From IMG/VR virus record IMGVR_UViG_3300017917_001434, positions 25,593-89,592 of that record: a stretch of 64,000 bases of DNA; one strand, written 5' to 3'. Positions 44,943-64,000 of the stretch are shown one piece after another. How positions within the stretch are numbered: position 1 is the first letter of the stretch; each line of letters opens with the position of its first letter. Made by a program: the position numbers and the translations under genes. The DNA comes from a virus. Below the pieces are notes generated by a model. That model ran no database searches, was not told the DNA's origin, and was given only the letters and a program-made list of their open reading frames with translations.

Positions 44943-45890
44943 ATGTTTTTAAGAGATCTTTTTGAAGCTGATACTGCCAAACACGCTGCATTTTGCTTTG
45001 GTCGTATGAATCCCCCAACTATTGGGCATCAACAGTTAATCAATACTGTAGCTCGAGCAGCTCACGGTGGCGATTTCTTTATTTTCACTAGTCAAAGTCA
45101 AGACCCTAAGAAAAATCCGTTAGACTATCAAACTAAAGTTAAATTTTTACGTGCTTTATATCCAGACTTGGCCAGTCACTTTGTCTACGAGCCTAGTTTA
45201 AAAACTGTGATCCAAGTAGCGCATTGGTTATATTCCAAAGGATACCGTAGTGTAACTTTTGTGGCCGGTAGTGATCGTCTAGCTGACTTTAAAGAATTGT
45301 TAACAAAATACAATGGCGTAGAAGGTCCCAACGGCATGTACAAATTTGATCGTATCAACTTTGTCAGCAGTGGTGAACGCGACCCCGATGCCGAAGGTGT
45401 AACTGGTGTAAGTGCTAGTGCCGCTCGTGCCGCTGCCCAAGCAGGAGATTTCAAAGCATTTGCTCAGGCCACCGGTGCAGGTAAACTAGCACAACCTTTA
45501 TATGATGCTGTACGTCAAGGCATGTTATTAGAAAACGTAACAGGCAAATTACCACCAGGCGAAACTATGAATATTGATGGCGCCAATTTAGTGAGATTGC
45601 GTAAATTACCTCAATATAAACAGGGATATGATGCTCAAATGAGAATGTCCACCGGTACTCCTAACAATTCATACGAATTAGGATCAGATCAATATAATGC
45701 GTTTTATATTGGTACAGGCGATGCTTTTGCTAAAAAAAACAGTTTTATTAATGATGTCGCAGAAGATGCCAGTGGGTATATTCCTAAAAATAAACGAGAA
45801 GCAAAAGACCCACGCTGGAGTATGGCACTGAGTGTAGATGTAACTCCAGAAACACCAACTAAAAACGCACGTGCTTTCAGATTGATCTAA
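44943..45890 (+). CDS. cytidyltransferase-like (HxGH) protein with CTS-like leader
   Basis: FGRMNPPTIGH, VAGSDR, SAS motifs; MFLRDLFE leader; TAAATA at 44914. Confidence 0.85.
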   Translation: MFLRDLFEADTAKHAAFCFGRMNPPTIGHQQLINTVARAAHGGDFFIFTSQSQDPKKNPLDYQTKVKFLRALYPDLASHFVYEPSLKTVIQVAHWLYSKGYRSVTFVAGSDRLADFKELLTKYNGVEGPNGMYKFDRINFVSSGERDPDAEGVTGVSASAARAAAQAGDFKAFAQATGAGKLAQPLYDAVRQGMLLENVTGKLPPGETMNIDGANLVRLRKLPQYKQGYDAQMRMSTGTPNNSYELGSDQYNAFYIGTGDAFAKKNSFINDVAEDASGYIPKNKREAKDPRWSMALSVDVTPETPTKNARAFRLI

Positions 45891-46229
45891 ATGATATATT
45901 ATCTAACCTTAGATGTTCGTTGTTATAGACCAAATTGGGTATTTGAAGAACATAATAAAATAAAGTATTCTACACCAGGTTACAGAATCTATGTAGACAA
46001 AGATTTATTAGTAGAGCGTAGCTGGGTATGGGAAGGTAATAATTATATTACAGAAAATGTCTTTGTTGAATTACCCGAAGGTGAATCAGGACACAGCCTT
46101 AGATTAGAGCCAGCGTTAGCCAATCCGGCTCAGGCCAAATTTAGTATATCTAATCCAACAATTAATGGACACTCGATGCCATTGGTCTGGCGCGATGACT
46201 TCTTCTTAGACTTAGGTTTCAATACCTAG
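45891..46229 (+). CDS. hypothetical protein
   Basis: Abuts the upstream gene. Confidence 0.6.
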   Translation: MIYYLTLDVRCYRPNWVFEEHNKIKYSTPGYRIYVDKDLLVERSWVWEGNNYITENVFVELPEGESGHSLRLEPALANPAQAKFSISNPTINGHSMPLVWRDDFFLDLGFNT

Positions 46230-46244
46230 CGATAAATATAGTAT

Positions 46245-46406
46245 ATGAGAATAAATGAAATTTTAACAAAACCCCTTAAAGAAAATGCCAGTGCAGGTGC
46301 TACAGGTGCCGGAGCAGTGGCTACAAGCATGGGTGGCGGTGCTGGATTTGGTCTAAGTCCTTTTATGCGTCAGCCTGCTAAAAGAAAAGCTAAAAAGAGA
46401 AAATAA
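46245..46406 (+). CDS. 53-aa protein MRINEILTKPLKE...KRKAKKRK, not in the ORF track
   Basis: TAAATA 6 nt upstream; CTS-like leader, G/A-rich core, basic tail. Confidence 0.75.
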   Translation: MRINEILTKPLKENASAGATGAGAVATSMGGGAGFGLSPFMRQPAKRKAKKRK

Positions 46407-46408
46407 AG

Positions 46409-48136
46409 ATGGATATACGAGCACTCTTAGAAAAGATGTACAAGTTTGCCGGTAGCACGGACCAAAAACAAGGTCCTGCTGGACAATTACGTGGCAGCAA
46501 CAAAATGCCTAAGAAGGGTGGCAAACATCCAGCATATCATAAACTTGTGGGCGACAGTGTTGAACCAGAAGGCAATATGCTAGAAGACCTAGCACAAGAG
46601 GCACAGGATAAATCAATTGAATGGAAACTAGCTGAAGCCTGGGCTGAATTCAAAGAAGAAGCATTTAAAGATACAGCAGACAAACGTCCAGCACGTGCAG
46701 GAAGTCGTCCCGATCGTGAATATACATCAGATGATAAGCCAAGCAAACGTTACAAAAAAGTAGGCGAGGGCGAGTGTATTGACAAAGAAAAAATTACTAA
46801 GTTCCACTCTAAATTAGATGATCTGGTACACAGTACATTTGGTAAACGCCCTGGTGAAATGCAGGAATCTGCCGCAGAACTAAATGTGGGAGATGATGTC
46901 ATTATCACCGGTCCAGTAGAACACCAAGGCGAAACTGGTGTAATTGACAGCTTTGGCAAAGATAAAAGTTTTGTAGTTGTAAACTTATACAACCACGGTA
47001 AACAAAGTTTTAACAGCAGTGATGTGAGCTACAATGACTATGCTGACAGCGATGCTGAAGAAGCAGAAATGTATGATCGTGACCCAGACTTCCGCAAGTG
47101 GGCAGACACACAGGTAGATGAAGGATTCTTTGGCGATCTTAAGAAGAGTATTAATACAGGTTATGCTACCGGCTTAAGAAAAGGTCTAAGAAGAACTATT
47201 AAGCCTGAATATCATGATGAATATGGCATCGATTCAGTTTTAACAAAAGATCAAGCTGTTGAAATATTAAAAGCTGCTAAGGCCAACGGTCATCTTATCC
47301 CTAAAACAGAAGGTTGGGAAAGTGGTCCTGAAGAACGTGATAGCTACGAACCAGATCCAGACTACGGCTACGATGAAAAACGTCAACGCGAACTTGATGC
47401 TAAAGCAGACGCAGAAAATGCTCGTCGTCCACAACAAAAAATTTACACATTACTTGGTCGTGGACCCAATATGGAACCTAACTACAAGTTCCCAGGTGAA
47501 TATACCAGCCAAGAAGACGCTATTGCTGCACGTGCTAAGTTAATGGCGGATCCTAGAACGCCTAATCCAAATATGATTGGCATTCATTCATATACAAAAT
47601 ATTTAGATGAAAGCCAAGGTGATCCACACAAAATTCTACTTAATAAATTAAGAGATATTGAGCGCGGTAACAATCCTACAGTACCTTCGGCAGACGACGA
47701 TGCTCGCCGTGCTGAACAGGGTAAAGAAGACTATCGCAAGTACGTAGAAAAAATGAAGAAGAAAGATCCTAACTTCGTTCCGCTGTATAAAATGGACGAG
47801 TATGGCGCTGCTGGAGGTGCTAGTGCGGCAAAAACTACCAGCACTTCAACTACTCCAACTGCTACTAGTAGCCCAGAAGAAAAACAAAAGGCAGCCAAAA
47901 TGGCACAGGCGGCCACTACAGTAAAATCTGCAATTGGTACAACTGCGCCCACAACTAGTGTAGTTAAAGCACTAGATACAGCTACACAGGGTAAAACTGT
48001 TGGTAGTCAAGATATGAAAATCTTAGAACCAATGATGAAAGATATGGCAACTGTAGCACAAGAGCCAAGATTAGCTAATCAATTTAAAACTTTAGTTAAT
48101 CAAATAAATCAAACACAACGTCAACAAAACAAATAA
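46409..48136 (+). CDS. charged mosaic protein, putative internal head protein
   Basis: MDIRALLE leader; segments bounded by (hydrophobic)-x-E sites. Confidence 0.7.
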   Translation: MDIRALLEKMYKFAGSTDQKQGPAGQLRGSNKMPKKGGKHPAYHKLVGDSVEPEGNMLEDLAQEAQDKSIEWKLAEAWAEFKEEAFKDTADKRPARAGSRPDREYTSDDKPSKRYKKVGEGECIDKEKITKFHSKLDDLVHSTFGKRPGEMQESAAELNVGDDVIITGPVEHQGETGVIDSFGKDKSFVVVNLYNHGKQSFNSSDVSYNDYADSDAEEAEMYDRDPDFRKWADTQVDEGFFGDLKKSINTGYATGLRKGLRRTIKPEYHDEYGIDSVLTKDQAVEILKAAKANGHLIPKTEGWESGPEERDSYEPDPDYGYDEKRQRELDAKADAENARRPQQKIYTLLGRGPNMEPNYKFPGEYTSQEDAIAARAKLMADPRTPNPNMIGIHSYTKYLDESQGDPHKILLNKLRDIERGNNPTVPSADDDARRAEQGKEDYRKYVEKMKKKDPNFVPLYKMDEYGAAGGASAAKTTSTSTTPTATSSPEEKQKAAKMAQAATTVKSAIGTTAPTTSVVKALDTATQGKTVGSQDMKILEPMMKDMATVAQEPRLANQFKTLVNQINQTQRQQNK

Positions 48137-48158
48137 AAAGGGCCGAAAGGCCCTTTTT
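48135..48158. terminator. bidirectional terminator
   Basis: AAAAAGGGCC-GAAA-GGCCCTTTTT. Confidence 0.85.
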
Positions 48159-48159
48159 G

Positions 48160-48603
48160 TTAATCATCAAACGCTTCGGGTTCAACTGCTTCTTGTTGTA
48201 GTTCTCGATCCAATCTTTTTAAGAACGATTTAACTGTAGTAAGTTTATTATACAATCTTGCTGATCTCTTTTTGTTTAGATACAAACAAAACTTGCCAGC
48301 ATCATCTTTTTTAACTTCTGCTAGTGTATCTCGCTTGTAGCCAATGTTGGCCACATACACCGGATCTACATCTAATAGATTATCAAACCCTAATAGAATA
48401 CTGTCTCCACGGTGTCCAATTTTAACTAATCTTAGATTAAATTTACCACTATTATTAACCTTGCGTAGGATAGTAGCAGCTAGTAATACATTGTTATCTG
48501 CAACTTGAATACTACCATCAGGATCAAACCAAAAATCTTCACCTTCGTAAGGGCCATTGATAGGATCGGCAATAATGTCGTTGAGCAATTCTACTTGGTT
48601 CAT
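48160..48603 (-). CDS. hypothetical early protein
   Basis: Start moved to MNQVELL behind AAGGTG. Confidence 0.7.
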   Translation of the reverse strand: MNQVELLNDIIADPINGPYEGEDFWFDPDGSIQVADNNVLLAATILRKVNNSGKFNLRLVKIGHRGDSILLGFDNLLDVDPVYVANIGYKRDTLAEVKKDDAGKFCLYLNKKRSARLYNKLTTVKSFLKRLDRELQQEAVEPEAFDD

Positions 48604-48633
48604 AATACACCTTGATCTGTTGATAATAGAGCA

Positions 48634-48662
48634 ATTATACAATATTTTCTAGCATTTGTCAA
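48634..48662 (-). promoter_or_regulatory. consensus sigma70 promoter
   Basis: TTGACA-N17-TATAAT on the minus strand. Confidence 0.85.
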
Positions 48663-48732
48663 CCAGAATTTTGATTAATGTTTAGTTTTAATATTGATAA
48701 ATATCATATAAAGCTATAAAACGGAATAGGGC

Positions 48733-49122
48733 ATGTTACTAACTGAGTTTTTCACTACCGCGGAGGGCGACTCGTATGCAAAGTCTACGTCAGCGTCGTC
48801 AATTGCAGAAGCTAAACGCAAAATATCAGCATCAGAAGATCCGTGCTGGAAAGGGTATCACATGGTGGGTACTAAGTCTAAAGATGGTCGTGAAGTCCCT
48901 AACTGCGTACCTGGTGCAAAAGGTTCAATGAACGAAAGTGAAGAAATGAGTCACATTATACAGGCTCGAGAGTTGGTAAAAAAGGCATTAAAAGACACAA
49001 ATAAACGTCACGAGTATTTTGATTATATCAAATACCTACGTGCCAAACATGGTGCTGACTACAGCACACAAATACATCAAGCCGCTACAACATTTGACAA
49101 GGAAACACATAATGGCCGTTAA
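48733..49122 (+). CDS. hypothetical protein with PCWKGY...VPNCVP motif and CTS-like leader
   Basis: MLLTEFF; TAAATA at 48698. Confidence 0.7.
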   Translation: MLLTEFFTTAEGDSYAKSTSASSIAEAKRKISASEDPCWKGYHMVGTKSKDGREVPNCVPGAKGSMNESEEMSHIIQARELVKKALKDTNKRHEYFDYIKYLRAKHGADYSTQIHQAATTFDKETHNGR

Positions 49123-49498: not shown

Positions 49499-49514
49499 TA
49501 GAAGGTTATAATTC

Positions 49515-52235
49515 ATGGGACTCACAACCAATACCAGAACAGCATTAGTTACAACAGGATCTAGTGGAACAACTACTACTCAGACAGTTAGTGTTCCAAC
49601 CGGTGCTTTAACAGTAACAGTCGGAGCCGGTGGCACTACAGGATCTGGTGGTGCTTCAAGGGTCGCAAATGGTACTAATACGATTGTTATTGGAGGAGGC
49701 GGAAATCCTGTAGCAATTAATCGAACAAACGTAGCATCAACAACTAAATATGGCACAGTTCAGAATGCACCCACGGCTGTTACTCGGGGAACCCCAGGAC
49801 AAGTGGTTGTATCTTGGCAAGAAACAGTTATACCAGGCACCCCAGCAGTAACAGAACCAGTATATCAACCTGTTTACAGTCCTGTGTACGAAACTGTATA
49901 TCAACCAGTGTACTCTACAGTGCCCGGTGCGGCTGCCGGTCGTGGCGCAGGCGGTGGTTATGTTAAAAAAATTATTGAAGTTAAAGAAGGCGATGTTCTT
50001 ACCATTGGAGTAGGTGCCCCTGGAACAAGCTATGTTGGTGGCCAGGGTTATGTACTATCTACTGCCAGCGGAGGAACAAAACCCCTAATAGAAATCCCAA
50101 TGAGCAGTGAAGACTGGGTGCTTCCGTTTACGTCTGATGCTGGTACAATCAACGACATTTGTATAGCGGTAATTGACGAGGTAAGCGTAAGAGACTCAAC
50201 TATAGACGCAAACTGGAACATTTTCCGTAGTAAGTGGCCTACAAGAAAATTTTATCTCTTAAGACCTAGTGACAGAGACATTCATTTACCTCCAGGATTT
50301 GCCAGCGATCCTAATGCTTTTGGTCCAATTACTGTTAATAGAGATAACGGTAATGCAAACTTAACCTCAGATTGGTTTACACTTGCCAACTGCGATACAT
50401 TAGTTGCAGGTGCAAGTATTAGACTGTCAGTAGACCGTTCAGGTAGTTTAGGTGGAACAAATAACAGTGCTGTTAGAGCTAGCTTAGATCTCATGAGAAC
50501 AAAAGCAAGTTTTGATTCGGGTATTAATTACTCCGGAGGAAGTGCTGGCACAGGCACAGCTCGTGGTGGTGGTGGCGGTGCAGCAACCGTAGTACTTCTC
50601 AATGGTGTAATTATTGCTGTAGCCGGAGGTGGCGGTGGTGGCGGTGCTGGTGGGTCCAGTACCAATGCTGGTACTAGCGGTTCTCCTGCAAGTGCATCAG
50701 GACTTGGCCGCGGAAGTCAAGGTGTTGGCGGATCATCTCCCCCAGGTAACATTACCGGTGGCGGTGGCGGTGGCGGACACTACGGTGGAGCTGCTGGCAG
50801 TAGCGGCACACGAGGTACTGGAGGATCTGGTGGTGTAAATTATGGCGGACTTGTATCTTTAGCAGGTTCAGGTGAAACTCCTGGTGGCGCTACAGTCAGC
50901 GAATATCCCGGAGGTAGAGTTGGTTATGCTGGTTCTAGTGGCGGCGCTGTTTTAAGTTTTATTAAATCATTTAATGTTTCTTATAAGCATGCTGGAGATT
51001 GGCGAGATATTGACAAAGCCTGGATCAAACTTCCAGGTGGACGATTTGGCGAATGGCGAGAAATTTATAACGGCTGGGTAAAAGTCAACGACGAATGGAG
51101 ACCATTGATAACTTCTGGTCGTATTACAGGTACAGAAAATGTTTATATCCCAGAAGCCACATACACTCTTTCTGCTAGCACTGCTATTATTAACGAAGGA
51201 CAAAGTGTTACATTTACACTTAGAACCACCGGGGTGCCACTACAAAATCCAGTAAGTTACGTTGTAACAGGGGTAGAAGCCAATGACTTGGCATCTGGTA
51301 GTAGTCCATTATCTGGTAACTTTATAGTAGGTACCAATGAATCTGTTACCTATATCGCAAGGTCGGATCTTACCACAGAAGGTAGCAAAACTATAAGAGT
51401 ATCATTAACCAACGGAAAGAGTTTTGCTACCTGTTTAATAAATGATACTTCAACTACTCCTATTGCTGCATATAATTTAACAGCATCCACACCATCAATT
51501 AACGAAGGTGGTTCTGTAACATTTACCTTGTCTACAACTAATGTAGCCAACGGAACAGAAATTGGCTATTACTTAACCGGTATTACCGAAGATGACCTAG
51601 CGTCAGGTTCTGACAGTTATCGTGGAAATTTTGTAGTAGGTCTAACCACTACAAAAACTTTTACGCTTAAAGAGGATTTATCTACTGAGGGTGCAGAAAC
51701 TATACGTTGTAACCTAAATGGCCTAGGTATTAATGCCTACGCCCTAGTAAACGATACTTCATTGACCCGTCCATCGGGCAGTGAAACATTTACCGTAGCC
51801 GGACAGGGTTTTTGGACTGTTCCTGCTAGAGTTACCGCAGTAAGAGTAACTGCGTATGGCGGCGGTGGTGGTGCTGGTGGTTCGCATTCAGGATGTGAAA
51901 ATCCAGGTAGTCACTATGGAGGCGCTGGCGGCGGAGGTTATGTAACTACAAAAATTATCAATGTTACTCCTGGTACACAAATTGCATATACTGTCGGTGC
52001 AGGTGGCGCTGGCGGTACAGCACAAAAAACTGGAGCCACTGGAGGCACCAGCACATTCAGTTCAGTTAGTGCCAGTGGAGGTAGCGGAGGTATCGGAAAT
52101 ACTAAAGCAAAACCTGTCGATGGTGCCGGTGGCACAGCAGGTAATGGCGGTGCATCTGTTAAAAGAAGTGGTGCCACTGGTGGCAATGGCGGTCCTGGAC
52201 GTATTTTTATAGAATGGAGCCCATCCATTGGATAA
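49515..52235 (+). CDS. glycine-rich tail fibre/adhesin-like protein with two Calx-beta/Ig-like repeats
   Basis: GGGG-rich domains; INEGxSVTFTL...TEG repeat present twice. Confidence 0.7.
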   Translation: MGLTTNTRTALVTTGSSGTTTTQTVSVPTGALTVTVGAGGTTGSGGASRVANGTNTIVIGGGGNPVAINRTNVASTTKYGTVQNAPTAVTRGTPGQVVVSWQETVIPGTPAVTEPVYQPVYSPVYETVYQPVYSTVPGAAAGRGAGGGYVKKIIEVKEGDVLTIGVGAPGTSYVGGQGYVLSTASGGTKPLIEIPMSSEDWVLPFTSDAGTINDICIAVIDEVSVRDSTIDANWNIFRSKWPTRKFYLLRPSDRDIHLPPGFASDPNAFGPITVNRDNGNANLTSDWFTLANCDTLVAGASIRLSVDRSGSLGGTNNSAVRASLDLMRTKASFDSGINYSGGSAGTGTARGGGGGAATVVLLNGVIIAVAGGGGGGGAGGSSTNAGTSGSPASASGLGRGSQGVGGSSPPGNITGGGGGGGHYGGAAGSSGTRGTGGSGGVNYGGLVSLAGSGETPGGATVSEYPGGRVGYAGSSGGAVLSFIKSFNVSYKHAGDWRDIDKAWIKLPGGRFGEWREIYNGWVKVNDEWRPLITSGRITGTENVYIPEATYTLSASTAIINEGQSVTFTLRTTGVPLQNPVSYVVTGVEANDLASGSSPLSGNFIVGTNESVTYIARSDLTTEGSKTIRVSLTNGKSFATCLINDTSTTPIAAYNLTASTPSINEGGSVTFTLSTTNVANGTEIGYYLTGITEDDLASGSDSYRGNFVVGLTTTKTFTLKEDLSTEGAETIRCNLNGLGINAYALVNDTSLTRPSGSETFTVAGQGFWTVPARVTAVRVTAYGGGGGAGGSHSGCENPGSHYGGAGGGGYVTTKIINVTPGTQIAYTVGAGGAGGTAQKTGATGGTSTFSSVSASGGSGGIGNTKAKPVDGAGGTAGNGGASVKRSGATGGNGGPGRIFIEWSPSIG

Positions 52236-52614: not shown

Positions 52615-53105
52615 TAGTTAACTCGGCTGTTAAAAACAACAGCTTTGTCTATTGTTCTGTATATCAAAGTGCTCATGAATCTACCAGTTATCATAACATT
52701 GGTAACGGGCATTTTCATCAAGCTATCTATATAGTTGAAGGCCACGGACTAGCATCAGTTAAGGAAGATCCTACATTAGATCAGACTTTAGCCGCTGGTA
52801 ATCTCTATGAGATATCATATACATACGACAAAAATATTGTAACCAAAACTTCTGAATCTGGATTAAGCATGATGATGTTCAATCCTATTCCAGAAACAAA
52901 AAAATTAAAATTTGAAGTATTAAAAGGTGCACAAAAAAGAATTGTTTTGGCCGGTGATCAACGAGTCACGGTGGTTTGTGTAACTGGCCCTGTGCAGATT
53001 AAAGATAAAGAATTAGCTAGTATGCAGTTTGCTGTAGTTTTTTCAAATACCTCGGCGGAATTGGTTATGCAAGAGCATCATATTTGTATACTAGTAACAG
53101 GATAA
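52611..53105 (+). CDS. hypothetical protein, possibly cupin-like
   Basis: HFHQAIYIVEGHG. Confidence 0.6.
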   Translation: MIVNSAVKNNSFVYCSVYQSAHESTSYHNIGNGHFHQAIYIVEGHGLASVKEDPTLDQTLAAGNLYEISYTYDKNIVTKTSESGLSMMMFNPIPETKKLKFEVLKGAQKRIVLAGDQRVTVVCVTGPVQIKDKELASMQFAVVFSNTSAELVMQEHHICILVTG

Positions 53106-53125
53106 CTTACAAGGAAATATTATCA

Positions 53126-53830
53126 ATGAAAAAACTATTATTAACACTATTACTAGTGAGTTCAACAGCGTGGGCAGGCATCAATCAAAGTTGTCCTCAG
53201 TTCACTCCTGCAGGGGTACCAGCTTATACAGCTAAACCTGGCGATCAAGAGATTTGTCACAAGAACTATGCAGTTATACATCGCTGTGACGTTAAAGCAC
53301 CATCAGCAGTGTTTGAACACTTAACGCAGGCTGCTATGTCAGGACCTGCTAAACGTAAAGATGACTTTCGCCCTGATCCTCTTGTTACTCCTAACTGTCA
53401 AGCACAATTAAGTGACTATGCTACTGTAGGTAAAACACACGATCGTGGTCATATGAGCCCTGCGGCTAATAATACACAAGACGCAGATATTATGAGCGAG
53501 AGCTTTTTCTTAAGTAATATGCAACCACAGGTAGCCAACAACAATCGTGGTGCCTGGAGATTGTTAGAAAGTTCAGAACGTGATCTGGCTAAAGCAGGTG
53601 GAGATTACTATATTATCAGTGGCGGTATATGGGACGCTGGATATCAAAAAACTGGCAATGGTTTGGGTATTCCAACACGCTTGTATAAGATCATTTACAA
53701 TAAAACAACTAAACAAGTACGTGCATTTTTAATGCCTAATGCACCTATTAGCCCAGCAACAGATTGGCCTAAATACGAAACTACTTTAGCGGCTGTTGAA
53801 GCTGCAACTGGAATGAAGTTCAAATTCTAA
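53126..53830 (+). CDS. DNA/RNA non-specific endonuclease (NucA/EndoG family) with signal peptide
   Basis: DRGHMSP, FFLSNMQPQ, NRGAWRLLE; MKKLLLTLLLVSSTAWA signal. Confidence 0.9.
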   Translation: MKKLLLTLLLVSSTAWAGINQSCPQFTPAGVPAYTAKPGDQEICHKNYAVIHRCDVKAPSAVFEHLTQAAMSGPAKRKDDFRPDPLVTPNCQAQLSDYATVGKTHDRGHMSPAANNTQDADIMSESFFLSNMQPQVANNNRGAWRLLESSERDLAKAGGDYYIISGGIWDAGYQKTGNGLGIPTRLYKIIYNKTTKQVRAFLMPNAPISPATDWPKYETTLAAVEAATGMKFKF

Positions 53831-53846: not shown

Positions 53847-53870
53847 AAACCGCCCAAGTGGCGGTTTTTT
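53847..53870. terminator. terminator between convergent genes
   Basis: AAACCGCC-CAAGT-GGCGGTTTTTT. Confidence 0.8.
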
Positions 53871-54999: not shown

Positions 55000-55038
55000 T
55001 CAAATATTTATAGAAACCCGTTTTAACTAAATATAATA

Positions 55039-55593: not shown

Positions 55594-56320
55594 TTTATAC
55601 GAAGGTGGTAACATTTTTAAGCAAGCAGATGGTAGCCCTGCTACTGTTCGTATTGCTCGCGATAACGTTGTGCCAACTGTACAATGGTTAGAGCAACTTA
55701 CGGGTCTAAATCTTGTAGACAATATGCTAGGCAGCACCGGTCGTAAAGAAACTTCTGGTGATTTAGATCTAGGAGTTGATAGTACTAAAGTTAGTAAAGA
55801 AGTGTTGATACAACAGTTACTACGCAAAGGTATTGACCGTAATGACATACGTAAAACTGGCGACAGTGTACACTTAAAGACACCAATATTAGGTGATCCT
55901 AGCAACGGTTATGTACAAACTGACTTTATGTTTAGCGATAATCCAGCATTTCAAAGTTTTAGCTATGCTGGCACAGGCGCAGGCGAATTTAAAGGTGTAC
56001 ACCGTAACATACTGTTAGCCAGCATTGCCAAGGCACTGGGCATGAAATGGAGTCCAAAGTTTGGACTGGTTAACAGAGAAACTAACGAAGTAATCAGTAA
56101 CAATCCACAAGAAATAGCCAAACAATTAGTCAATGGTACTATACAGGACCTGGCCAGTGTTGAAACTATATTAAATAAAATTAAAGGTCGTGCCGACTAT
56201 GATCAATTAACCGCAGATGCACGCGAAGCATTTGCCCGAGACAATTTAGTACTACCAGAATCTGCTCCTTTGCCTGGAACAGGCGAGTGGTTTAGAGCAT
56301 GGCGCAACAGAGATATTTAA
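55583..56320 (+). CDS. Pol-beta-like nucleotidyltransferase-fold protein
   Basis: LGSTGRKETSGDLDL (hGS...DxD) and VQTDFM. Confidence 0.65.
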   Translation: MAVNLYEGGNIFKQADGSPATVRIARDNVVPTVQWLEQLTGLNLVDNMLGSTGRKETSGDLDLGVDSTKVSKEVLIQQLLRKGIDRNDIRKTGDSVHLKTPILGDPSNGYVQTDFMFSDNPAFQSFSYAGTGAGEFKGVHRNILLASIAKALGMKWSPKFGLVNRETNEVISNNPQEIAKQLVNGTIQDLASVETILNKIKGRADYDQLTADAREAFARDNLVLPESAPLPGTGEWFRAWRNRDI

Positions 56321-56321
56321 A

Positions 56322-57644
56322 ATGAGAGCAAGACAATTTATATTTGAATATAGTAGAGAAAAGACTGCTGGTGTGTTTGGTAAGAAACTTCTGGCCGCGT
56401 TAGCCAAAGATACAAGTGTTGACAGTAGAATTGGTATGCTAAAGGATATTCTTAAACAACCAGAACCAACAGCCGCTGCAGAAGTATTAGATCGTGTTAT
56501 GGCTATGTTAGAGTCTGCTGATCCTACAGCCAATAAAGAATATGTACAGTGGTTAGCCAAAGTCTACGCCAACGAAGGTGTTAAGATGGAAGACCTGCTG
56601 AGTAAAACAGTTGAATGGCTACAGAAATACGATCTATACAAGAAGAAAAAGTTCTTTACAGGGGTTGATGCTAAACTTGCCAACATCATGAACTTGAAGT
56701 GGAAGGACCTATGGGAAGTTAGCATACGTGCCGACTTCCAGATGAAGATTAAACAGCAAGAAGAAAAGGCAATGCCCCGAGGCGATGCTGAAGTAGTCTA
56801 CGAAAACGGGCAGGTTCGCATTATTGTGCCTAAAGATAAAGAAGCAGCTTGCTACTATGGACAGGGCACTACATGGTGTACAGCAAGTACACAAAGTACA
56901 AACTACTTTAGCAGTTATAGCAAAGATGGTCCGCTGTATATCCTTTTACCAAAGCAGCCCAAATATGAAGGTGAAAAATATCAACTACACTTCCCAAGTG
57001 GACAGTTTATGGATGAAACAGACAGCCAAGTCAATGATATTGTAGAATTACTAGACATGCGCTTTGGCGGTGATGTAGCAGAATTCTTCATGGAACGCGA
57101 ACCAGAGATTAAAGACTGGTTAGTGTTTACTCCAGACGAAATGCTAGAGCCACTAATTGCTAAGATCAAAACCGCAGTAAACGATCACGTATATGAAATA
57201 GTCAACGAGTGGGAAGTAGAAGATGACTATTGGTATGAATATCTACGCAAAGAGGGTTACGTATATCCAGAAGGTCATGAAGAAGAAGGCGAGATTGACT
57301 GGGACAAAGTTGCCGAGGCTGACCTAACCTACACAGACTGGAACTATGATGCCGCTGACTTTATCGGTAGAATAGTTGGCGCAGTAGATCTAACTCCGCG
57401 CGAAGTTAAAGAACTAGCACAAGAAGTGGGCAGTGAATGGGGTGCCGATACACAAACAATCAGTGACCTTGACAAGATCATGGCCTACAGCATTGAACAG
57501 ACTAACAGTCGCAACCAAGGCGATGGTGGTGTAGCAGAATGGTTACACGAACACATATACATTAAGAAACGTGATGGTAAGTGGGACGTGAGTTTGCTAT
57601 ACACACAAAAAGACGGACAACGTAAAGAATACGAGATACGCTAA
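56322..57644 (+). CDS. hypothetical protein with AACYYG..TxWCTA domain and CTS-like leader
   Basis: MRARQFIFE leader; acidic C-half. Confidence 0.7.
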   Translation: MRARQFIFEYSREKTAGVFGKKLLAALAKDTSVDSRIGMLKDILKQPEPTAAAEVLDRVMAMLESADPTANKEYVQWLAKVYANEGVKMEDLLSKTVEWLQKYDLYKKKKFFTGVDAKLANIMNLKWKDLWEVSIRADFQMKIKQQEEKAMPRGDAEVVYENGQVRIIVPKDKEAACYYGQGTTWCTASTQSTNYFSSYSKDGPLYILLPKQPKYEGEKYQLHFPSGQFMDETDSQVNDIVELLDMRFGGDVAEFFMEREPEIKDWLVFTPDEMLEPLIAKIKTAVNDHVYEIVNEWEVEDDYWYEYLRKEGYVYPEGHEEEGEIDWDKVAEADLTYTDWNYDAADFIGRIVGAVDLTPREVKELAQEVGSEWGADTQTISDLDKIMAYSIEQTNSRNQGDGGVAEWLHEHIYIKKRDGKWDVSLLYTQKDGQRKEYEIR

Positions 57645-58072
57645 TGAGAGACATCATAAACCTACTAGAAGCCATCGATAAAAATTGCCCTCGAGCAACC
57701 TATGACATTGATGAGAATCTAAAGAATCGTCAAAAGGCCATAGATGAATATCACTACGGTCCTGCTAATCCCAACAAGCCAGAAGACTATTGGAAGGCCA
57801 GCGCAAAGATATTTGGTGTAAGTGAAGCCACTGCTAAGACTATGCTGTGCGGTAACTGTGCGGCATTTGACGTCAGCGACAGTATGCGCGAGTGTATTGG
57901 TAAAGGCATACAGGGCGATGAAGATAACATAGATGCTAACGCTACAATTAATCTAAGCGACTTGGGTTACTGTAACTTCCTTCACTTCAAATGTGCGGGG
58001 TCGCGTAGTTGTAAAGGATGGATTACTGGCGGACCAATTACAGAAAAAGACAAGGGTAAACAAGCAGATTAA
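57644..58072 (+). CDS. Cys-rich putative metal-binding protein
   Basis: CGNC...GYC...C...CKGW; MRDIINLLE leader. Confidence 0.7.
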   Translation: MRDIINLLEAIDKNCPRATYDIDENLKNRQKAIDEYHYGPANPNKPEDYWKASAKIFGVSEATAKTMLCGNCAAFDVSDSMRECIGKGIQGDEDNIDANATINLSDLGYCNFLHFKCAGSRSCKGWITGGPITEKDKGKQAD

Positions 58073-58106
58073 CCCTGGCTTTTCAAGTAAAATGATAAAT
58101 AACATT

Positions 58107-58754
58107 ATGTTAATATATAAAGTTACTAATCAAATCAATCACAAATCCTATATTGGGAAAACCGAATTATCTTTTTCCAGGAGAAAATCAAATCATTTGA
58201 GTGATGCTAAAAGAGGATGCGAGTTTGCTTTTCATAGAGCATTACGTAAATATGGAGAAGAAAACTTTACCTGGGAAATTATAGAAGACTGTATAGAAGA
58301 TAAAACTCTATTAGACGATAAAGAAAAATATTATATCGCACTTTACGAAACTTTTGGACCCAAAGGTTACAATATGAGTGAAGGTGGAGAAGGGCAAACA
58401 GGCTGGATACCCTCTGATGAAACTCGTGTTAAATGGAGTAAGCAACGAAAAGGAAAAGATCCTTGGAATAAAGGAACTGCTAAACCTAAAAAAGTTCTTA
58501 CTGAAGAAGAACAAGCCGCAAAAAAAGCAGATGCTAACCGTAAAAGAAGCGAAGCAAATAAAGGTAAAAAAACTTGGAACGCAGGACTAAAAGATGTATA
58601 TGGTAGAACTACTTATAAAGTAATATACAAAGATGGAACTGAAAAAATAGGCACAAAAGTAGATTTAGGTTTACCTAAATATGTAATAGATTATATGTTC
58701 AAAGATAAGTGCGGTTCTCGTAAATATAACATTGAACGTATAGAAAGAGTTTAG
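58107..58754 (+). mobile_element. free-standing GIY-YIG homing endonuclease with NUMOD3-like motifs
   Basis: LIYKVTN..YIGKT, FHRALRKYG, GYN, PWNKG; TAAATA 5 nt before the ATG; flanked by a duplicated gene end. Confidence 0.88.
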
Positions 58755-58783: not shown

Positions 58784-58942
58784 ATGAGAGCACATGAAAT
58801 ATTAAAACCTGTTGCCGAGGATGACTACACAGATCACGATGATCCGCAAAAACTAAAAGACATGTATCAATACTACGTAAACGTACGGGGCATGGACCCA
58901 GAAGAAGCCAAACGTAAAGTCTACGATAGAGACGGTGAATAA
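58784..58942 (+). CDS. 52-aa protein MRAHEILKPVAE..., not in the ORF track
   Basis: CTS-like leader; fills the gap exactly. Confidence 0.7.
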   Translation: MRAHEILKPVAEDDYTDHDDPQKLKDMYQYYVNVRGMDPEEAKRKVYDRDGE

Positions 58943-58944
58943 AA

Positions 58945-59595
58945 GTGCGAGCTTGTGAGTTTATCTCAGAAAACAAAGTTCGTCCTAACATTGATATTGA
59001 ATGGGACGGTAACTTTAATGTTTACGCTTTCATTGATGGCAAGCGAGTGGGTCATGCTGAATTTGCCAGCGATGATCCAGAAGGTATGGGTGGCTTTTAT
59101 GCAGTCAGCGTTGGAGTTAACCCGGAGTATCGCCGCATGGGTGTTGCTACTGCTATGTATGATGCCGCAGAAGAAAAGTTTGGTGAGATTATTCCTAGCG
59201 AATCTCAAACAGATGATGCTCGTGCGTTTTGGAGATCACGTGAACTAAGTGAAAACTTATCTAACACACAGATGTTACGTTACATTAAGAAAATACACCC
59301 AGATTTTCACCCAGATGTACATCACAGTGTACTAAATCATGAGGAGTGGGAATTAATTAACTATCCTGTTGATAAGTTACGTATAGCAGATGAAGATGAT
59401 GTTGAAGATCCCTACAATAGAATTATTATGGTAGACCCAGACTATGCTAGCGACTTACCGGCAGAGCATATTAAAGATAACCCCATTGTAGTAGATGCTG
59501 ATGGTTACATTATTGACGGTAATCACCGTGCTTACCAAGCTAAGAAGTTAGGACTAAAGAACATACCAGCGTATGTTCCTTATGAAGAGATTTAA
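58945..59595 (+). CDS. GNAT acetyltransferase fused to a ParB/Srx-like domain
   Basis: VNPEYRRMGVATAMY; PIVVD..IIDGNHR; MRACEFISE leader. Confidence 0.8.
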   Translation: MRACEFISENKVRPNIDIEWDGNFNVYAFIDGKRVGHAEFASDDPEGMGGFYAVSVGVNPEYRRMGVATAMYDAAEEKFGEIIPSESQTDDARAFWRSRELSENLSNTQMLRYIKKIHPDFHPDVHHSVLNHEEWELINYPVDKLRIADEDDVEDPYNRIIMVDPDYASDLPAEHIKDNPIVVDADGYIIDGNHRAYQAKKLGLKNIPAYVPYEEI

Positions 59596-59596
59596 G

Positions 59597-59667
59597 AACA
59601 CAGCCTAGGACCGTTAGTGTTAGGCCGTTGGGCGGCTGCTGCCCTGGAGGGATGCCAAAAGTGAGCA
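59597..59667 (+). ncRNA. candidate pseudoknotted RNA element
   Basis: GC-rich intergenic segment with AACAC/GTGTT, GCCT/AGGC, GGGC/GCCC, TGG/CCA and TGCT/AGCA pairings. Confidence 0.45.
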
Positions 59668-59679
59668 TAGGATATAATA

Positions 59680-60258
59680 ATGTTAGCCATAGAACTATTT
59701 GAAAATTCTCCAGACACTCCTCAGGGTAGTCGCACACAAGATCTCAACCTTGGCAAACTATGGCTATTAACAGAATTAAAACGTTTGGGTTTAGCAGACT
59801 TTGATAATGTTTATGTATTAGGCTCATGGTACGGTAGTATGGGTCCTTACTTACTATACAAAGAACTTGACTTTGGTCATGCTTATCTCTTAGACATCAA
59901 AGACAAAAATACTCAATGGGTAAATCGTTATAATCAACAGTTAGGTATAGATGATAAAATTACTGCCTTAACTCAAGATTGCTGTGCTACAGAATTCAAG
60001 GGCGATCGCATACTCATAATCAACACCAGCACTAACGACATACCCAGTACACAATGGTTAGATAACACACCCCCAGGCACGGTAGTAGCCATACAAGGAC
60101 GTGATGGACAACCCAATAATCCAGACAATCCTGCGCAGGATATAGACTCGTTTGATCAACGTTATCCCTTGAGTCGTACATTATTGTTAGATAGTATTAA
60201 GTTGCAGGGCGCAGATGGCAAGCCTTACAATCGTTTTATGAAAATCGGAATACGATAA
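59680..60258 (+). CDS. class I SAM-dependent methyltransferase-like protein
   Basis: VYVLGSWYG, LLDI, IINTS; MLAIELFE leader. Confidence 0.65.
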   Translation: MLAIELFENSPDTPQGSRTQDLNLGKLWLLTELKRLGLADFDNVYVLGSWYGSMGPYLLYKELDFGHAYLLDIKDKNTQWVNRYNQQLGIDDKITALTQDCCATEFKGDRILIINTSTNDIPSTQWLDNTPPGTVVAIQGRDGQPNNPDNPAQDIDSFDQRYPLSRTLLLDSIKLQGADGKPYNRFMKIGIR

Positions 60259-60265
60259 ATACACA

Positions 60266-63238
60266 ATGCGCTACGAACAAATCAAACCCATTCTCGACGA
60301 AGAAGTACTTGACGAAGTCAAGATGTCGCCATCAGCCCTACAAAAATTTGCTCGCAGTCCAGAAGCAGAAGGTATGCTTATGGGCATAGAATTTGAAATG
60401 TGCGTGCCTAATGTCTCAGTGGATGACGACAGTGGTGAGGGTGAATACGACTATGACATGGACGAGCGTGCCTACAGTATCGACGACATTGTTGAGTTTT
60501 TCCAAAACGGTGAAATGGCACAGTTAACACGCAACGGTGCTGAACGACTACGTCAAGAAATGTGGGACCAATACCTAGATTGGACCGGCGAAAAGATACA
60601 AGAAGATCTTGACCAAAGTGAATTAGAAAGTCGTGTACGTAATCAACTACTTGATGATATGGACGTTAACGATTACATGGACGCTGCCGCAGAAGAACTT
60701 GGCATCGACCCTACAGAAGATGACGAAAGCGAAGCTAAGGTACGTGAGCGTGCTGAAGAATTACTAGATGACGCTGTAGAAGAAATGATGGGCGACAGTC
60801 CCGAATACGAATATGCCTACGATAATATCCGCCAAGAGATGGAAGATGAAATGCGCGACAGTGCTGACTACGATCAAGAAGCGTGGTTGCGTGACATTGG
60901 CATTGACTACATGAGTGAAGCTGAGCGTGAGTGGAACTTAGATTGGCCGCACTGGACATCCTATGGTGGCGAAGGTGAACTTGATGTAGAAACAGTGGGC
61001 GATGAGTTTGGTCGTGCTATGGGCTTAGACTTTGTTAATACATCCAGCAGTTATCACGGCGCACGTCGTGATGGTAAAAACTGGATCATTGAACCTGATA
61101 GCAGTATCGATGCTGACTCAGGTGATGGTGGTTTAGAGTTTGTTAGTCCACCTATGCCAATTAAAGATGGCTTAGAAATGATACAGAAAATGTATGCTTG
61201 GGCTAAGAAAGAAGGCTGTTATACTAATAAGTCAACTGGCCTACACATGAACATTAGTGTTCCAGACATGACCATTGATAAGTTAGACTATGTCAAACTA
61301 GCACTATTCCTAGGCGATGAATACGTATTAAAACAATTTGGTCGTGAATATAATAGTTACTGTAAGAGTGCTATGAGCAAGATCAAAGACCGTGTTCGTC
61401 CAGAAGAAGTTTCAGTGGTTTTGGCTACTATGAAACAACACTTAAATAGTCTAGCCAGTAAAACTATTCACAGTGGTATTACAGACAAGTATACGTCAAT
61501 TAATACTAAAGACAAATATGTAGAGTTTCGTGGTCCTGGTGGTGATTACCTTAATAAAGATCCGTTTGAAATTATCAACACTGCTCTGCGCCTAAGCATG
61601 AGCCTACGTATTGCCACTGACCCAGAAGCATACAAAAAAGAGTATGCTAAGAAACTGTACAAATTAATAGAACAAGGTGGTGACCCTGATGAAGCAGTTC
61701 AACTATTCAGCAAATATGCTGTAGGTGAATTGCCTAAAGAAGACCTAATTGCCCGTATTAAATTTGCTCGCAAAGAACGTGAAATTAAGAAAGGTAAAAC
61801 ATCTTCAGTAAGTCGTGCTATCGACAGCCCTGCGATCAAAGATGAGATACGCAAGTTACCAAGTTACTACAGAGAACTAGCCGGTGATATTAAAGATTGG
61901 GACGAAGATCGTATAAAAAATATACTTCGTCGCATTGAAACTGATGACTGGGGTGATGGATTAACTCCAGATCAGAAAAATCTTTTTACAACTATTCTAA
62001 ACAATGAACTAGAGTACCGTGCCGCACAAGGTGAAAAGAAACAATACTGGGTAATGAATAAAGATGGCACAGGCGGCAAACAAATGGTATTTGCTGACAA
62101 CGAAAACGAAGCCATTCTCAAAGGTGGCAAGCAGATGGGCATGAGTCGCGAAGAAAGTATCACTAAACTTCGCGCATCTGAAAAAGTAGAAGAACCAGCC
62201 AGCACAGCACAAGGCAGCGGCAGTGGTCGCACAAAATACTCACGTGATGTGCAAATCATTATCGCCTCTATGCCTAGTCCTTTTGCAAGTTTTACTGAGA
62301 ATATTCCAATTAAAACCGACGAAACTCTTGCCACAGCAGTTCGCAGAGCCGCAGATGGCGAGTTTGACGATTCTTTAAATCGCAAACAACTTCAAACTTT
62401 AATACAATTAATCAACGATGAACAATCATACCGTGCTGCCTACGGCGAAGGCCCTGCGGCATCTGGAACTGAACTTGAATTCCAAACAGGCGAACCGGCG
62501 ACAACAGAGCCATCACTGCCAACCAACTGGGATCAATGGATTAGATCCATTGGCGCTTTAGAAACCAGCACACTGAACAACGTAGCACGTATGGTTCGCC
62601 AAGGTGGCAATGAAGTAATTAACAGTCTGACAGCTAGTGATCGCGAATACTTATTAAGTCGTATTAGCCAAGAAATTGAACGTCGTGCTACAGGCGGAAG
62701 TAATGCGGGCACAACAGAATGGCCTCGTCCATGGAATCAATGGGTAGCAAATATACAAGATCAAGGACTAGCAAACATCAACAATGTTCGCGCAACTATG
62801 AGCGACCCTGCCTACACAGGTACCGTATTAAGCAACGAACAAAAACGTGAACTTGTTCAATTAATTGATGTTGAACTACGCCGCAGAATGGAAGCAGGTG
62901 AAACTGGTGAAGAGCCGGCACAACAGGAATTAAACTTTGACCAAGATCCTGCGGCTGCACAGCAACAACAGCTAAGACGTGATGATCCTGTTACATCGAA
63001 CGATCCCGAAGCAGAAAGTCCTATTGCTAATCAAGGCACAGAAGATTTTAGGATTTACAATCCCTACACTAATAGTGTAGTCAGCATAGTGCGTCAAGGT
63101 ACACTAGACTATGCCATACAAAAAGCACGTCAACATGAACAAGACCTAGGCCTAGAAGCAGGTACACTACAAGTAAGTCGTGTAGAGCAAACTAACGAAT
63201 CAATAAATATACTAAAGAGATTAGCAGGTGTTAGATAA
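60266..63238 (+). CDS. putative amidoligase (COOH-NH2 ligase) with acidic insert and C-terminal repeats
   Basis: GIEFE, EPDSSI, LEFVSP, STGLHMNIS, KYTSIN, VEFR. Confidence 0.8.
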   Translation: MRYEQIKPILDEEVLDEVKMSPSALQKFARSPEAEGMLMGIEFEMCVPNVSVDDDSGEGEYDYDMDERAYSIDDIVEFFQNGEMAQLTRNGAERLRQEMWDQYLDWTGEKIQEDLDQSELESRVRNQLLDDMDVNDYMDAAAEELGIDPTEDDESEAKVRERAEELLDDAVEEMMGDSPEYEYAYDNIRQEMEDEMRDSADYDQEAWLRDIGIDYMSEAEREWNLDWPHWTSYGGEGELDVETVGDEFGRAMGLDFVNTSSSYHGARRDGKNWIIEPDSSIDADSGDGGLEFVSPPMPIKDGLEMIQKMYAWAKKEGCYTNKSTGLHMNISVPDMTIDKLDYVKLALFLGDEYVLKQFGREYNSYCKSAMSKIKDRVRPEEVSVVLATMKQHLNSLASKTIHSGITDKYTSINTKDKYVEFRGPGGDYLNKDPFEIINTALRLSMSLRIATDPEAYKKEYAKKLYKLIEQGGDPDEAVQLFSKYAVGELPKEDLIARIKFARKEREIKKGKTSSVSRAIDSPAIKDEIRKLPSYYRELAGDIKDWDEDRIKNILRRIETDDWGDGLTPDQKNLFTTILNNELEYRAAQGEKKQYWVMNKDGTGGKQMVFADNENEAILKGGKQMGMSREESITKLRASEKVEEPASTAQGSGSGRTKYSRDVQIIIASMPSPFASFTENIPIKTDETLATAVRRAADGEFDDSLNRKQLQTLIQLINDEQSYRAAYGEGPAASGTELEFQTGEPATTEPSLPTNWDQWIRSIGALETSTLNNVARMVRQGGNEVINSLTASDREYLLSRISQEIERRATGGSNAGTTEWPRPWNQWVANIQDQGLANINNVRATMSDPAYTGTVLSNEQKRELVQLIDVELRRRMEAGETGEEPAQQELNFDQDPAAAQQQQLRRDDPVTSNDPEAESPIANQGTEDFRIYNPYTNSVVSIVRQGTLDYAIQKARQHEQDLGLEAGTLQVSRVEQTNESINILKRLAGVR

Positions 63239-63888
63239 TGGCAAATACATTTTTAAGAAAAATAAGCAGCAACATAAGCACAACACTTACCTCAGTGGGT
63301 AGTTATACTGTTGGTGCAAACATTGGTGCTGTTGTAGTGGGATTAAGTATCTCTAATACTACTCCTTCGCAGGTATTTGCCAATGTTACAATTAATAACG
63401 GGTCTACTGATTACTATATTGTTCGTAATGCTACTATCCCAGCCGAAGGTACTTTAATTACAGTCGGCGGAGATCAAAAAGTAATATTACAAACAGGGGA
63501 CAGCGTCAAAGTATCAGCAAGCGGTAACGTAGATGTTATTATGAGTGTTATGGAAAGTGAAAGTGTTGGCTTAACTGTTGACGGTGGTGGCGGAGGTGGT
63601 GGCGGAACTACATACTCGCACTTAACAGGTGATTGGACCGATGGATTCTTCTATTCAGAACCAGGTCAAAATAATATTAGCCTAAACACAAGTCTTGCAG
63701 TACTAAGTTTCTACGATGCGCTTGACTCTACTTCTCCTGGAACTATCTTCACTGTGGTATACAATGATAATTCCACCGACACACTAACACAGTCTGGTGC
63801 TTCAAGTTACTTTGGTGCACAACTTCTTGTGCCAGTAACTGGGTTTGGGTCCGGGTCAATAAAGTCCATCAAATCTATAACATTTTAG
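63238..63888 (+). CDS. structural protein; N-terminal domain paralogous to 5645..5977
   Basis: MANTFLRK...GGDQKVIL...; poly-Gly linker to an extra domain. Confidence 0.65.
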   Translation: MANTFLRKISSNISTTLTSVGSYTVGANIGAVVVGLSISNTTPSQVFANVTINNGSTDYYIVRNATIPAEGTLITVGGDQKVILQTGDSVKVSASGNVDVIMSVMESESVGLTVDGGGGGGGGTTYSHLTGDWTDGFFYSEPGQNNISLNTSLAVLSFYDALDSTSPGTIFTVVYNDNSTDTLTQSGASSYFGAQLLVPVTGFGSGSIKSIKSITF

Positions 63889-63901
63889 AGATTAAGTAAA
63901 T

Positions 63902-64000
63902 ATGAATCTATACGAAATGTTTGATAACAGCAAAGAACTAACGCTAGTGGATGCACTGCGTGATTTCTTGCCTCTGGCTGTTCAAGAACTTAATCTAACA
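63902..64000 (+). CDS. partial ORF MNLYEMFDNSKE... running off the window
   Basis: Open to the window end; CTS-like leader. Confidence 0.55.
   Translation, partial: MNLYEMFDNSKELTLVDALRDFLPLAVQELNLT

Follow-up and report, generated by a model that had tools for sequence, protein, structure and literature searches.

A putative T4-type capsid-targeting leader on an array of diverse proteins in an uncultured T4-related jumbo phage

In phage T4, the capsid-targeting sequences (CTSs) of the internal proteins IPI, IPII and IPIII, as well as the propeptides of Alt, gp24, gp22, gp67 and gp68, are removed by the gp21 prohead protease (Mullaney and Black 1996, reviewed in PMC9026906, PMC5694885, PMC3012670). 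Of the CTS residues, those at positions 4 and 7 are important for targeting and those at 8 and 10 for processing; an Asp at position 10 blocks processing, not targeting (PMC9026906). The T4 N-termini (NC_000866) read MKTYQEFIAE in IPII and IPIII, MELITELFDE in Alt, MAKINELLRE in gp24 and MLKEQLIAE in gp22. In phages phiKZ, 201phi2-1 and SPN3US, propeptides of head and ejection proteins are cut after Glu by a gp21-related protease (PMC5694885, PMC10052503). In the literature that we found, accounts of the CTS are confined to T4 and its close relatives, with another propeptide system reported for phiKZ-like phages, and we found no published report of such a leader in PA5oct-like or other T4-related jumbo phages. 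Here we analyzed a 64,000-nucleotide stretch of viral DNA (the window: the last 64 kb of the 89.6-kb IMG/VR contig IMGVR_UViG_3300017917_001434), in which 13 open reading frames (ORFs) between 44943 and 64000 begin with a similar leader of 7-13 amino acids (aa). Positions are in window numbering unless labelled as contig positions.

A first-pass annotation had drawn attention to about 13 similar leaders on late-region ORFs, and all 13 N-termini that it quoted are starts of plus-strand ORFs, at 44943, 46245, 46409, 48733, 55039, 55583, 56322, 57644, 58784, 58945, 59680, 60266 and 63902. The proteins are otherwise unrelated, as it had stated: beyond residue 14 their bodies show no mutual similarity, with E > 0.3 for every pair. 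The enrichment check that it had called for was carried out with a simple motif (at positions 4-7, an acidic or amide residue and after it two hydrophobic ones, with a further acidic residue within 7), which was found in 6 of 23 greedily called ORFs between 44.9 and 64 kb versus 0 of 99 in the rest of the contig, with a background of 1.9-2.3% at internal positions. In a leave-one-out analysis with a hidden Markov model (HMM), seven of the 13 leaders (46245, 56322, 59680, 58784, 58945, 55039 and 48733) ranked in the top 25 among 1,713 candidate starts contig-wide (top 1.5%), for which our own binomial estimate gives a chance probability of ~2e-10. These seven form a tight core class, M-R/K-x-x-E-hydrophobic-hydrophobic…E. 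When every possible start on both strands was scanned, no further convincing copy was found outside the region, in agreement with the claim that early and tail genes lack the leader.

The likeness to the T4 CTS that had been proposed for these leaders is close for several of them. MRACEFISE, MLAIELFE, MRINEILTKPLKE and MKAQELIRATE closely match the starts of T4 IPII/IPIII, Alt, gp24 and gp22, with MRACEFISE, at 58945, being the window leader closest to the MKTYQEFIAE of IPII and IPIII. The conserved Phe, Leu/Ile and Glu of the leaders correspond to CTS positions 7, 8 and 10, allowing for a one-residue shift. Most leaders also end in hydrophobic-x-E, as had been noted: by reading, L/I/V-x-E lies within the first 13 residues of 11 of the 13. 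Hydrophobic-x-E is present within residues 6-14 of 14% of ordinary N-termini. As to the exceptions, the leader at 55039 ends in A-T-E; that at 55583 has only L-Y-E, which fits; and that at 63902 ends in M-F-D, yet has L-Y-E at residues 3-5.

The contig is a fragment of an uncultured, T4-related jumbo phage. Its completeness was estimated by CheckV at 22%, and the genome is therefore expected to span ~350-400 kb. Among the genes of the window are those for an ATP-dependent DNA ligase and a T4-type clamp loader. The latter shares 57.6% identity with that of the Pseudomonas jumbo phage PA5oct, the closest cultured relative by this gene, followed in the ranking by Phosso, Atu_ph07, RsoM2USA and Rak2-like phages, and the best cultured matches of the window's large fibre proteins are in T4-like cyanophages. 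A megablast search of the region against phage genomes returned no match, and 95% of the region's sampled words were present in one pond metagenome, which alone among public runs contains most of the stretch and may be the source sample. The closest relatives, G001 and G002, are fragments like the contig itself (completeness of the three, 22-26%). Four further genomes were reached through the protein family described next: G003, which is 62% complete, and the near-complete G004 (329 kb, with terminal repeats), G005 and G006.

The leader is best conserved in the large family of the 440-aa protein encoded at 56322-57644 (plus strand; leave-one-out rank 2), which starts with MRARQFIFE followed by the invariant YSREKT. 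Nearly all of the 714 homologues start with MRA[RK][QDE]F[IL]x0-2E directly before YSREKT; the Glu preceding YSREKT is invariant, the residue three before it stays Leu or Ile despite one- and two-residue insertions or deletions in the spacer, and the leader is kept down to 38% body identity. In an AlphaFold2 model of the family, residues 1-8 have a pLDDT below 50 and the first helix begins at residue 12. The family has no Pfam or PDB sequence match and no significant PDB fold match; a chain of the cyanophage pre-ejectosome was rejected as a fold match, its best Foldseek E-value of 0.47 not being significant.

Arrays of such genes recur around this family. G001 is syntenic with the window (77% identity in the 440-aa protein) and has the same array, with several orthologous leaders kept, cargo that is partly different and a DNA polymerase gene directly after it. 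In the more distant G002, L008 and G004, too, an array carrying other cargo lies just ahead of the polymerase gene. Across 77 loci around members of the 440-aa family, 17% of ORF N-termini scored at least 7 bits with the window-trained HMM versus 0.3% of internal-Met controls, a 55-fold excess, and the 275 leader ORFs at these loci fall into ~70 body families, among them nucleotide-metabolism and modification enzymes. The consensus of 168 relatives' leaders is M-R-A-x-E-F-[LI]-x-E, with conservation collapsing after the Glu, a stop that is partly circular as the set was selected to have this residue at position 9 and the Glu is also part of the HMM. In G006, the capsid gene is followed, after one HNH-like ORF, by three leader-bearing paralogues. 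A second cluster of leader-like genes was observed between primase/helicase and exonuclease/ribonucleotide reductase genes, in L014 (PA5oct 148.6-158.2 kb) and at 70-76 kb in G004; in PA5oct it consists almost entirely of 'structural proteins' flagged by electrospray ionization tandem mass spectrometry (ESI-MS/MS). One leader protein, MRFSEFATEDLSRRGFLRGAAAAAGAAA (L007 7485-8147; G002 75586-76248), continues into an apparent twin-arginine export signal, an odd combination for a head-packaged protein.

Could the leaders be a chance resemblance combined with a remnant of common descent among the 5' ends of genes, having no present function? Six of the 13 are only loosely similar and, as given above, hydrophobic-x-E is not rare in ordinary N-termini. 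Nonetheless, the placing of seven leaders in the top 1.5% of starts, the lack of a single motif match among the 99 other ORFs of the contig, the 55-fold excess at related loci and the retention of the leader across the 714-member family make this explanation extremely improbable.

Codon use in the leaders indicates the level at which their similarity is held. Among window leader pairs with the same amino acid, the same codon was used in 41 of 97 cases, compared with 45.7 predicted by codon usage, and in G004 in 107 of 216 cases, compared with 116.7 predicted. Codon sharing is thus at the codon-usage expectation, and the similarity is therefore held at the level of the peptide, not of a DNA module or RNA signal: selection acts on the leader peptide, not on the DNA. 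These numbers bear directly on a further explanation, namely that the similarity reflects a translation-start requirement of leaderless or weakly Shine-Dalgarno mRNAs, or a DNA recombination anchor for incoming genes. In three leader genes, a TAAATA sequence does stand 4-6 nucleotides (nt) ahead of the ATG, so that their mRNAs would be near-leaderless, and one leader pair in G004 has 21 identical nucleotides in common. However, besides the synonymous identity at expectation in both genomes, on which a DNA module or recombination anchor was rejected for the window, the upstream contexts of the leader genes vary (coupled, spaced and near-leaderless), and two other near-leaderless genes with TAAATA upstream (34353-35366 and 53872-54999, both minus strand) have no leader. 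We regard a nucleic-acid-level signal as very improbable.

The leaders are probably a tag for capsid targeting and cleavage of the T4 type, carried by an enlarged set of cargo proteins that changes fast. Late in infection, the tagged proteins would be made from T4-style late promoters, and the leader, by imitating the N-terminus of genuine prohead-core proteins, would dock the cargo on the scaffolding core, where it would be enclosed as the shell forms. A gp21-family head protease would then cut after the Glu of the hydrophobic-x-E that ends most leaders, and the mature proteins would remain in the head with the DNA and exit with it at the next infection. We infer docking, cleavage and packaging of these particular proteins, as well as their ejection into the host; a role of the cargo in takeover or anti-defence is speculation.

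The leader is modular, being present or absent on homologous enzymes. Cytidylyltransferase homologues in L008 and PA5oct (gp307) are without it, a leaderless homologue of the NT5C nucleotidase is encoded elsewhere in G002, and the cytidylyltransferases of T4-like cyanophages have a longer N-terminal region with a CTS-style start, MKKFSDFLSE. The leader also lies outside the folded body, as Pfam domains begin at residues 15-18.

A protease of the gp21 type (Peptidase_S77) is encoded by each of G003, G004, G005 and G006 as well as by PA5oct, with the His and Ser motifs kept in PA5oct and G004, and we infer from these relatives that the window phage has one too. The T4 gp23 junction, FLTE/AE (cleavage position marked by a slash), aligns with FLVE/NASAG in PA5oct and HLVE/NATGG in G004, the two phages compared. 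A copy of this junction is found in the array itself, in a 53-aa mini-protein (46245-46406, plus strand; leave-one-out rank 1) consisting of the leader MRINEILTKPLKE, then NASAGATGAGAVATS, a Gly-rich stretch and a basic KRKAKKRK tail. NASAGATGAGAVATS copies the start of the mature capsid protein, the copied junction reading …LKE/NASAGAT…, and the PA5oct capsid protein reads FLVE/NASAGAT. The mini-protein is conserved at ~53-57 aa, with a KKRK-type basic tail and orthologues at 47444-47602 in G001 and 198492-198665 in G004, and in a comparison with the whole G004 proteome its second-best match was the capsid protein, exactly at the propeptide/mature junction. Unless a protease cuts the Glu-Asn bond in this clade, such a copy is difficult to account for. 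Possible roles for the mini-protein are those of protease substrate, decoy and internal peptide bound to DNA.

The leaders also resemble the N-termini of head-core proteins. In relatives, the small protein encoded beside the portal gene, at the gp67 position, has the N-terminus MNLLEMFNDD, MNLLEIFNSE, MNLNEMFDPP or MYIVEIFDK; in PA5oct, where the protein is virion-detected, it is MKINDIITE, and in Atu_ph07 MKLTELFNPLTE; the window proteins at 63902, 59680 and 44943 have the same type of start. The relatives' scaffold protein starts with MLKAIKPLLDSG…INE, close to the leader MRYEQIKPILDE at 60266. As these head-core and scaffold N-termini reach only the top 5-10% of G004 N-termini in the leader-HMM ranking, their resemblance to the leaders is moderate.

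The phage has its own folding and turnover kit, with GroES, GroEL, IF-1, DnaJ and a ClpA/B-type AAA+ unfoldase in the window (2704-4623, 24555-24770 and 40252-43416) and ClpP at contig 21494-22114, the last identified from its N-terminal sequence alone. N-terminal degrons exist in bacteria, and the leader might accordingly serve as a recognition tag for the phage's own quality control by the ClpA-like unfoldase, ClpP and chaperonins, timing the degradation or folding of accessory proteins; the encoded unfoldase, DnaJ and GroES/GroEL, along with the apparent ClpP, would suit such a role. Yet it is the T4 CTS and head-core N-termini that the leader matches, T4 being without Clp genes, nothing ties the motif to known ClpA, ClpX or ClpS recognition rules, and the capsid-junction mimic at 46245 would be left unexplained. 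We consider a quality-control tag improbable.

Late expression of the array, which capsid targeting would call for, is plausible from its upstream sequences. TAAATA, which resembles the core of T4 late promoters, lies no more than 60 nt upstream of 28 of the 125 ORFs on the contig (window 241-63209), in two spacing classes: ~3-8 nt, which is near-leaderless, and ~21-29 nt with a GGAG-like ribosome-binding site in between. Five leader genes with an upstream TAAATA, all on the plus strand, are heads of gene runs. The motif stands 23 nt before the start at 44943 (44914-44919), 6 nt before 46245 (46233-46238, near-leaderless spacing), 29 nt before 48733 (48698-48703), 5 nt before 55039, which heads the run 55039-58072 (55028-55033), and 4 nt before 60266 (60256-60261). 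In G004, TAAATA lies no more than 45 nt from 21% of ORFs versus ~2.5% expected, and is found upstream of both the portal/head operon and the genes that open the runs of the array. There was no per-gene association of TAAATA with the leader genes in G004 (p 0.36-0.81), only the first genes of runs carrying the motif. Sigma-70-like sites were not enriched in the region (50 versus 50.6 in shuffles).

The proposed system shares much with the T4 CTS: a short N-terminal peptide on unrelated proteins, almost equal spacing of Glu, Phe, Ile/Leu and the terminal Glu, the hydrophobic-x-E end, head-core-like N-termini and late-promoter-like motifs upstream, as well as an S77 protease and a T4-like capsid cleavage junction in relatives, and rapid turnover of cargo between relatives. 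It differs in scale, as 19 kb hold 13 leaders here and relatives have ~70 body families, compared with a handful in T4, in that much of the cargo has recognizable enzyme domains, and in its organization as a gene array that lies, by synteny, just before the DNA polymerase gene. The leader here is one residue shorter than the T4 CTS, has Arg-Ala at positions 2-3 and coexists in several subtypes. Furthermore, the system in the window is known from its sequence alone, and the protease gene is not on the contig.

Phages of the phiKZ type are likewise jumbo phages that pack many proteins in their heads, with a related protease cutting at x-x-E and a processing of ejection proteins that varies between relatives. 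Their cleavage motif is, in contrast, S/A/G-x-E or A-x-E, and their propeptides, often longer than 100 residues, share no short tag. A phiKZ-type propeptide was rejected for the window, as most leaders have Leu, Ile or Val three before the Glu and are 7-13 aa long, and the relatives are PA5oct, Atu_ph07 and Rak2-like phages, not phiKZ. In the Dar antirestriction system of phage P1, a defence-countering methyltransferase/helicase is reportedly packaged into the head via an N-terminal targeting region on DarB and then injected. This system is said to differ from ours in phage family and head assembly, in its longer targeting region and in its ordered dependence on other Dar proteins, and in P1 no short leader is common to many proteins. 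The polyvalent proteins of phages and conjugative elements, reportedly described by Iyer et al. in 2017, are said to combine ParB-like, methyltransferase and acetyltransferase domains proposed to enter the host with the DNA. These are single giant multidomain proteins, whereas here separate genes each have their own leader.

Several observations weigh against the capsid-targeting reading. The contig and its two closest relatives are without a protease or capsid gene: Peptidase_S77 and Gp23 families were not found on the contig, G001 or G002, all of which are fragments, and the link to a protease thus rests on the more distant relatives. By synteny, the array adjoins replication genes and not the head module. 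Six leaders are looser members of the class, with leave-one-out ranks of 65-371: MFLRDLFE (44943), MDIRALLE (46409), MAVNLYE (55583), MRDIINLLE (57644), MRYEQIKPILDE (60266) and MNLYEMFD (63902). The leader of the NT5C nucleotidase ends in A-T-E instead of hydrophobic-x-E, and its orthologues have RATA, RATK or RATT; with the Glu replaced by Ala, Lys or Thr, cleavage at this site is doubtful. In addition, enzymes of nucleotide metabolism packaged at low copy number would bring no obvious benefit. Finally, among 273 PA5oct ORFs (211 kb), we found no enrichment of ESI-MS/MS-flagged proteins with leader-HMM score (Fisher p 0.5-0.8).

PA5oct has few such leaders, and its mass-spectrometry list holds many cytoplasmic enzymes, such as ribonucleotide reductase, thymidylate synthase and ClpP. 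The list is therefore not specific for true virion components, detection in virions is weak evidence, and the enrichment test neither supports nor refutes packaging. Among the PA5oct proteins flagged as virion proteins are gp205 (MKLFEVFTLYE), which is homologous to the 440-aa cargo, and gp150, gp226, gp230, gp235, gp237 and gp238, which have leader-like starts; the leaderless PA5oct cytidylyltransferase is not flagged. These flags on individual proteins are anecdotes.

Some of the same observations would suit a leader that is never cleaved and acts as an address tag for the virion or another phage-built assembly, a docking peptide that stays in place, like those of interchangeable fibre or adhesin proteins. 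The NT5C leader has no conserved cleavage motif, the leader at 63902 ends in Asp, which in T4 prevents processing while still allowing targeting (PMC9026906), there are fibre-like genes between those of the array (49515-52235 and 63238-63888), and the PA5oct region just before the DNA polymerase gene encodes mostly fibre-like virion proteins. A permanent docking peptide, the favoured reading for the NT5C leader with its non-conserved A-T-E end, is nonetheless unlikely overall, since most leaders end in hydrophobic-x-E at a fixed distance with conservation stopping at the Glu, the cargo consists of soluble enzymes and not fibres, and the leaders resemble the N-termini of head-core proteins, not those of fibres, which here begin with MANTF. 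This MANTF type of start, MANTF(Y/L)RK(L/I)S…VGSYTV, is shared by the fibre-like proteins at 5645-5977 and 63238-63888 and is a second, distinct common N-terminus in the window, probably a fibre-attachment module.

The putative cargo of the array, all on the plus strand, is diverse. Of the enzymes named in the first-pass annotation, the cytidylyltransferase, the NT5C/HAD nucleotidase, the GNAT-ParB protein and the amidoligase were confirmed by Pfam or PHROG, whereas the nucleotidyltransferase and the methyltransferase are leads only. The 315-aa cytidylyltransferase-like protein (44943-45890; a weaker member of the leader class, leave-one-out rank 254) has L-F-E at residues 6-8, Pfam CTP_transf_like from residue 18 and a PHROG cytidyltransferase match of 2.6e-52, and its G001 orthologue starts with MFLQQLFE. 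The 575-aa protein (46409-48136; also a weaker member, rank 183) has no homologue in the phage database; its G001 orthologue, of 971 aa, starts with MNMKSLLEKMMKFAG. The 129-aa protein (48733-49122; rank 25) has the leader MLLTEFF..AE, with L-T-E at residues 3-5, PHROG matches of ~1e-9 and a CWKGY...VPNCVP motif, and its G001 orthologue (MLLTEFFETSEG) is 70% identical. CWKGY…G.K.K…VPNCV, a small Cys-containing module, directly follows the leader in several otherwise different leader proteins, at 48733-49122 in the window, 66426-66548 in G001 and 83529-83660 in G002.

The run headed by 55039 begins with the 184-aa NT5C/HAD 5'-nucleotidase (55039-55593; leader MKAQELIRATE, rank 15), whose NT5C domain starts at residue 15 (Pfam 3.5e-8). 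The 245-aa protein that follows (55583-56320) is the weakest member of the class (rank 371); it has no Pfam, PHROG or PDB sequence match, and the nucleotidyltransferase lead comes from a language-model look-alike, NTP_transf_2, at 0.91 (Atlas). Beyond the 440-aa protein lies a Cys-rich protein of 142 aa (57644-58072; a weaker member, rank 65) with no homologue in G001, G002 or G004. The 52-aa acidic ORF at 58784-58942 (leader MRAHEILKPVAE, rank 4) has no homologue in three relatives and is therefore an uncertain gene. It is followed by the 216-aa protein at 58945-59595 (GTG start, leader MRACEFISE, rank 4), with a GNAT acetyltransferase domain (7e-9) and a ParB-like C-terminus (PHROG 1.9e-6). 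For the 192-aa candidate methyltransferase (59680-60258; leader MLAIELFE, rank 2), the PDB sequence search found nothing, and the lead is a language-model look-alike, Methyltransf_31, at 0.94 (Atlas). The 990-aa protein at 60266-63238 (rank 285) has an Amidoligase_2 domain (9.6e-10) and the L-D-E of its leader at residues 10-12; members of this family in relatives start with MRYSQIKQALKE or MRYDQFKINLLE, and the Atu_ph07 homologue lies two genes from a T4-like portal gene. The last leader, at 63902-64000, belongs to a gene truncated by the end of the window, the G001 orthologue of which encodes 400 aa (MNLYEMFEPQKE).

Other genes are interspersed with the array. A GIY-YIG/NUMOD3 homing-endonuclease gene is inserted within it (57993-58754), and G001 holds a different gene at this place, which fits rapid turnover of the cargo. 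The minus-strand gene at 48160-48642, which is of early type although it sits inside the predicted late array, is driven by a perfect sigma-70 consensus, TTGACA-17-TATAAT (48634-48662, minus strand). A 10-bp GC-rich hairpin (48135-48158) that looks like a two-way terminator separates this gene from the 575-aa gene converging on it. A DNA/RNA non-specific endonuclease (53084-53830; Pfam 3.3e-37) has a signal-peptide-like start, MKKLLLTLLLV, after an upstream TTG and is followed by a strong terminator hairpin (53847-53867); it is a predicted secreted nuclease in a phage.

A broader proposal, which we find quite possible and put forward tentatively, is that a clade of freshwater jumbo phages related to PA5oct (~320-520 kb) has made a general loading code out of the T4 capsid-targeting peptide. 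The nine-residue tag M-R-A-x-E-F-L/I-x-E and its variants would then mark dozens of genes per genome and at least ~70 families, the mini-protein included, as a possible protease decoy or DNA-bound internal protein, and each virion would carry a large, fast-evolving injected proteome. This idea is directly testable in cultured PA5oct, for which mass-spectrometry data exist. If true, the tag could be used as a compact, transferable signal by which foreign proteins are loaded into the heads of jumbo phages. Should the tag work as in T4, sequence alone would list the proteins that uncultured giant phages carry into the cell, providing a catalogue of candidate early-acting takeover and counter-defence enzymes, and the T4 targeting code would be ancient and widely reused, on a far larger scale than in T4 itself.

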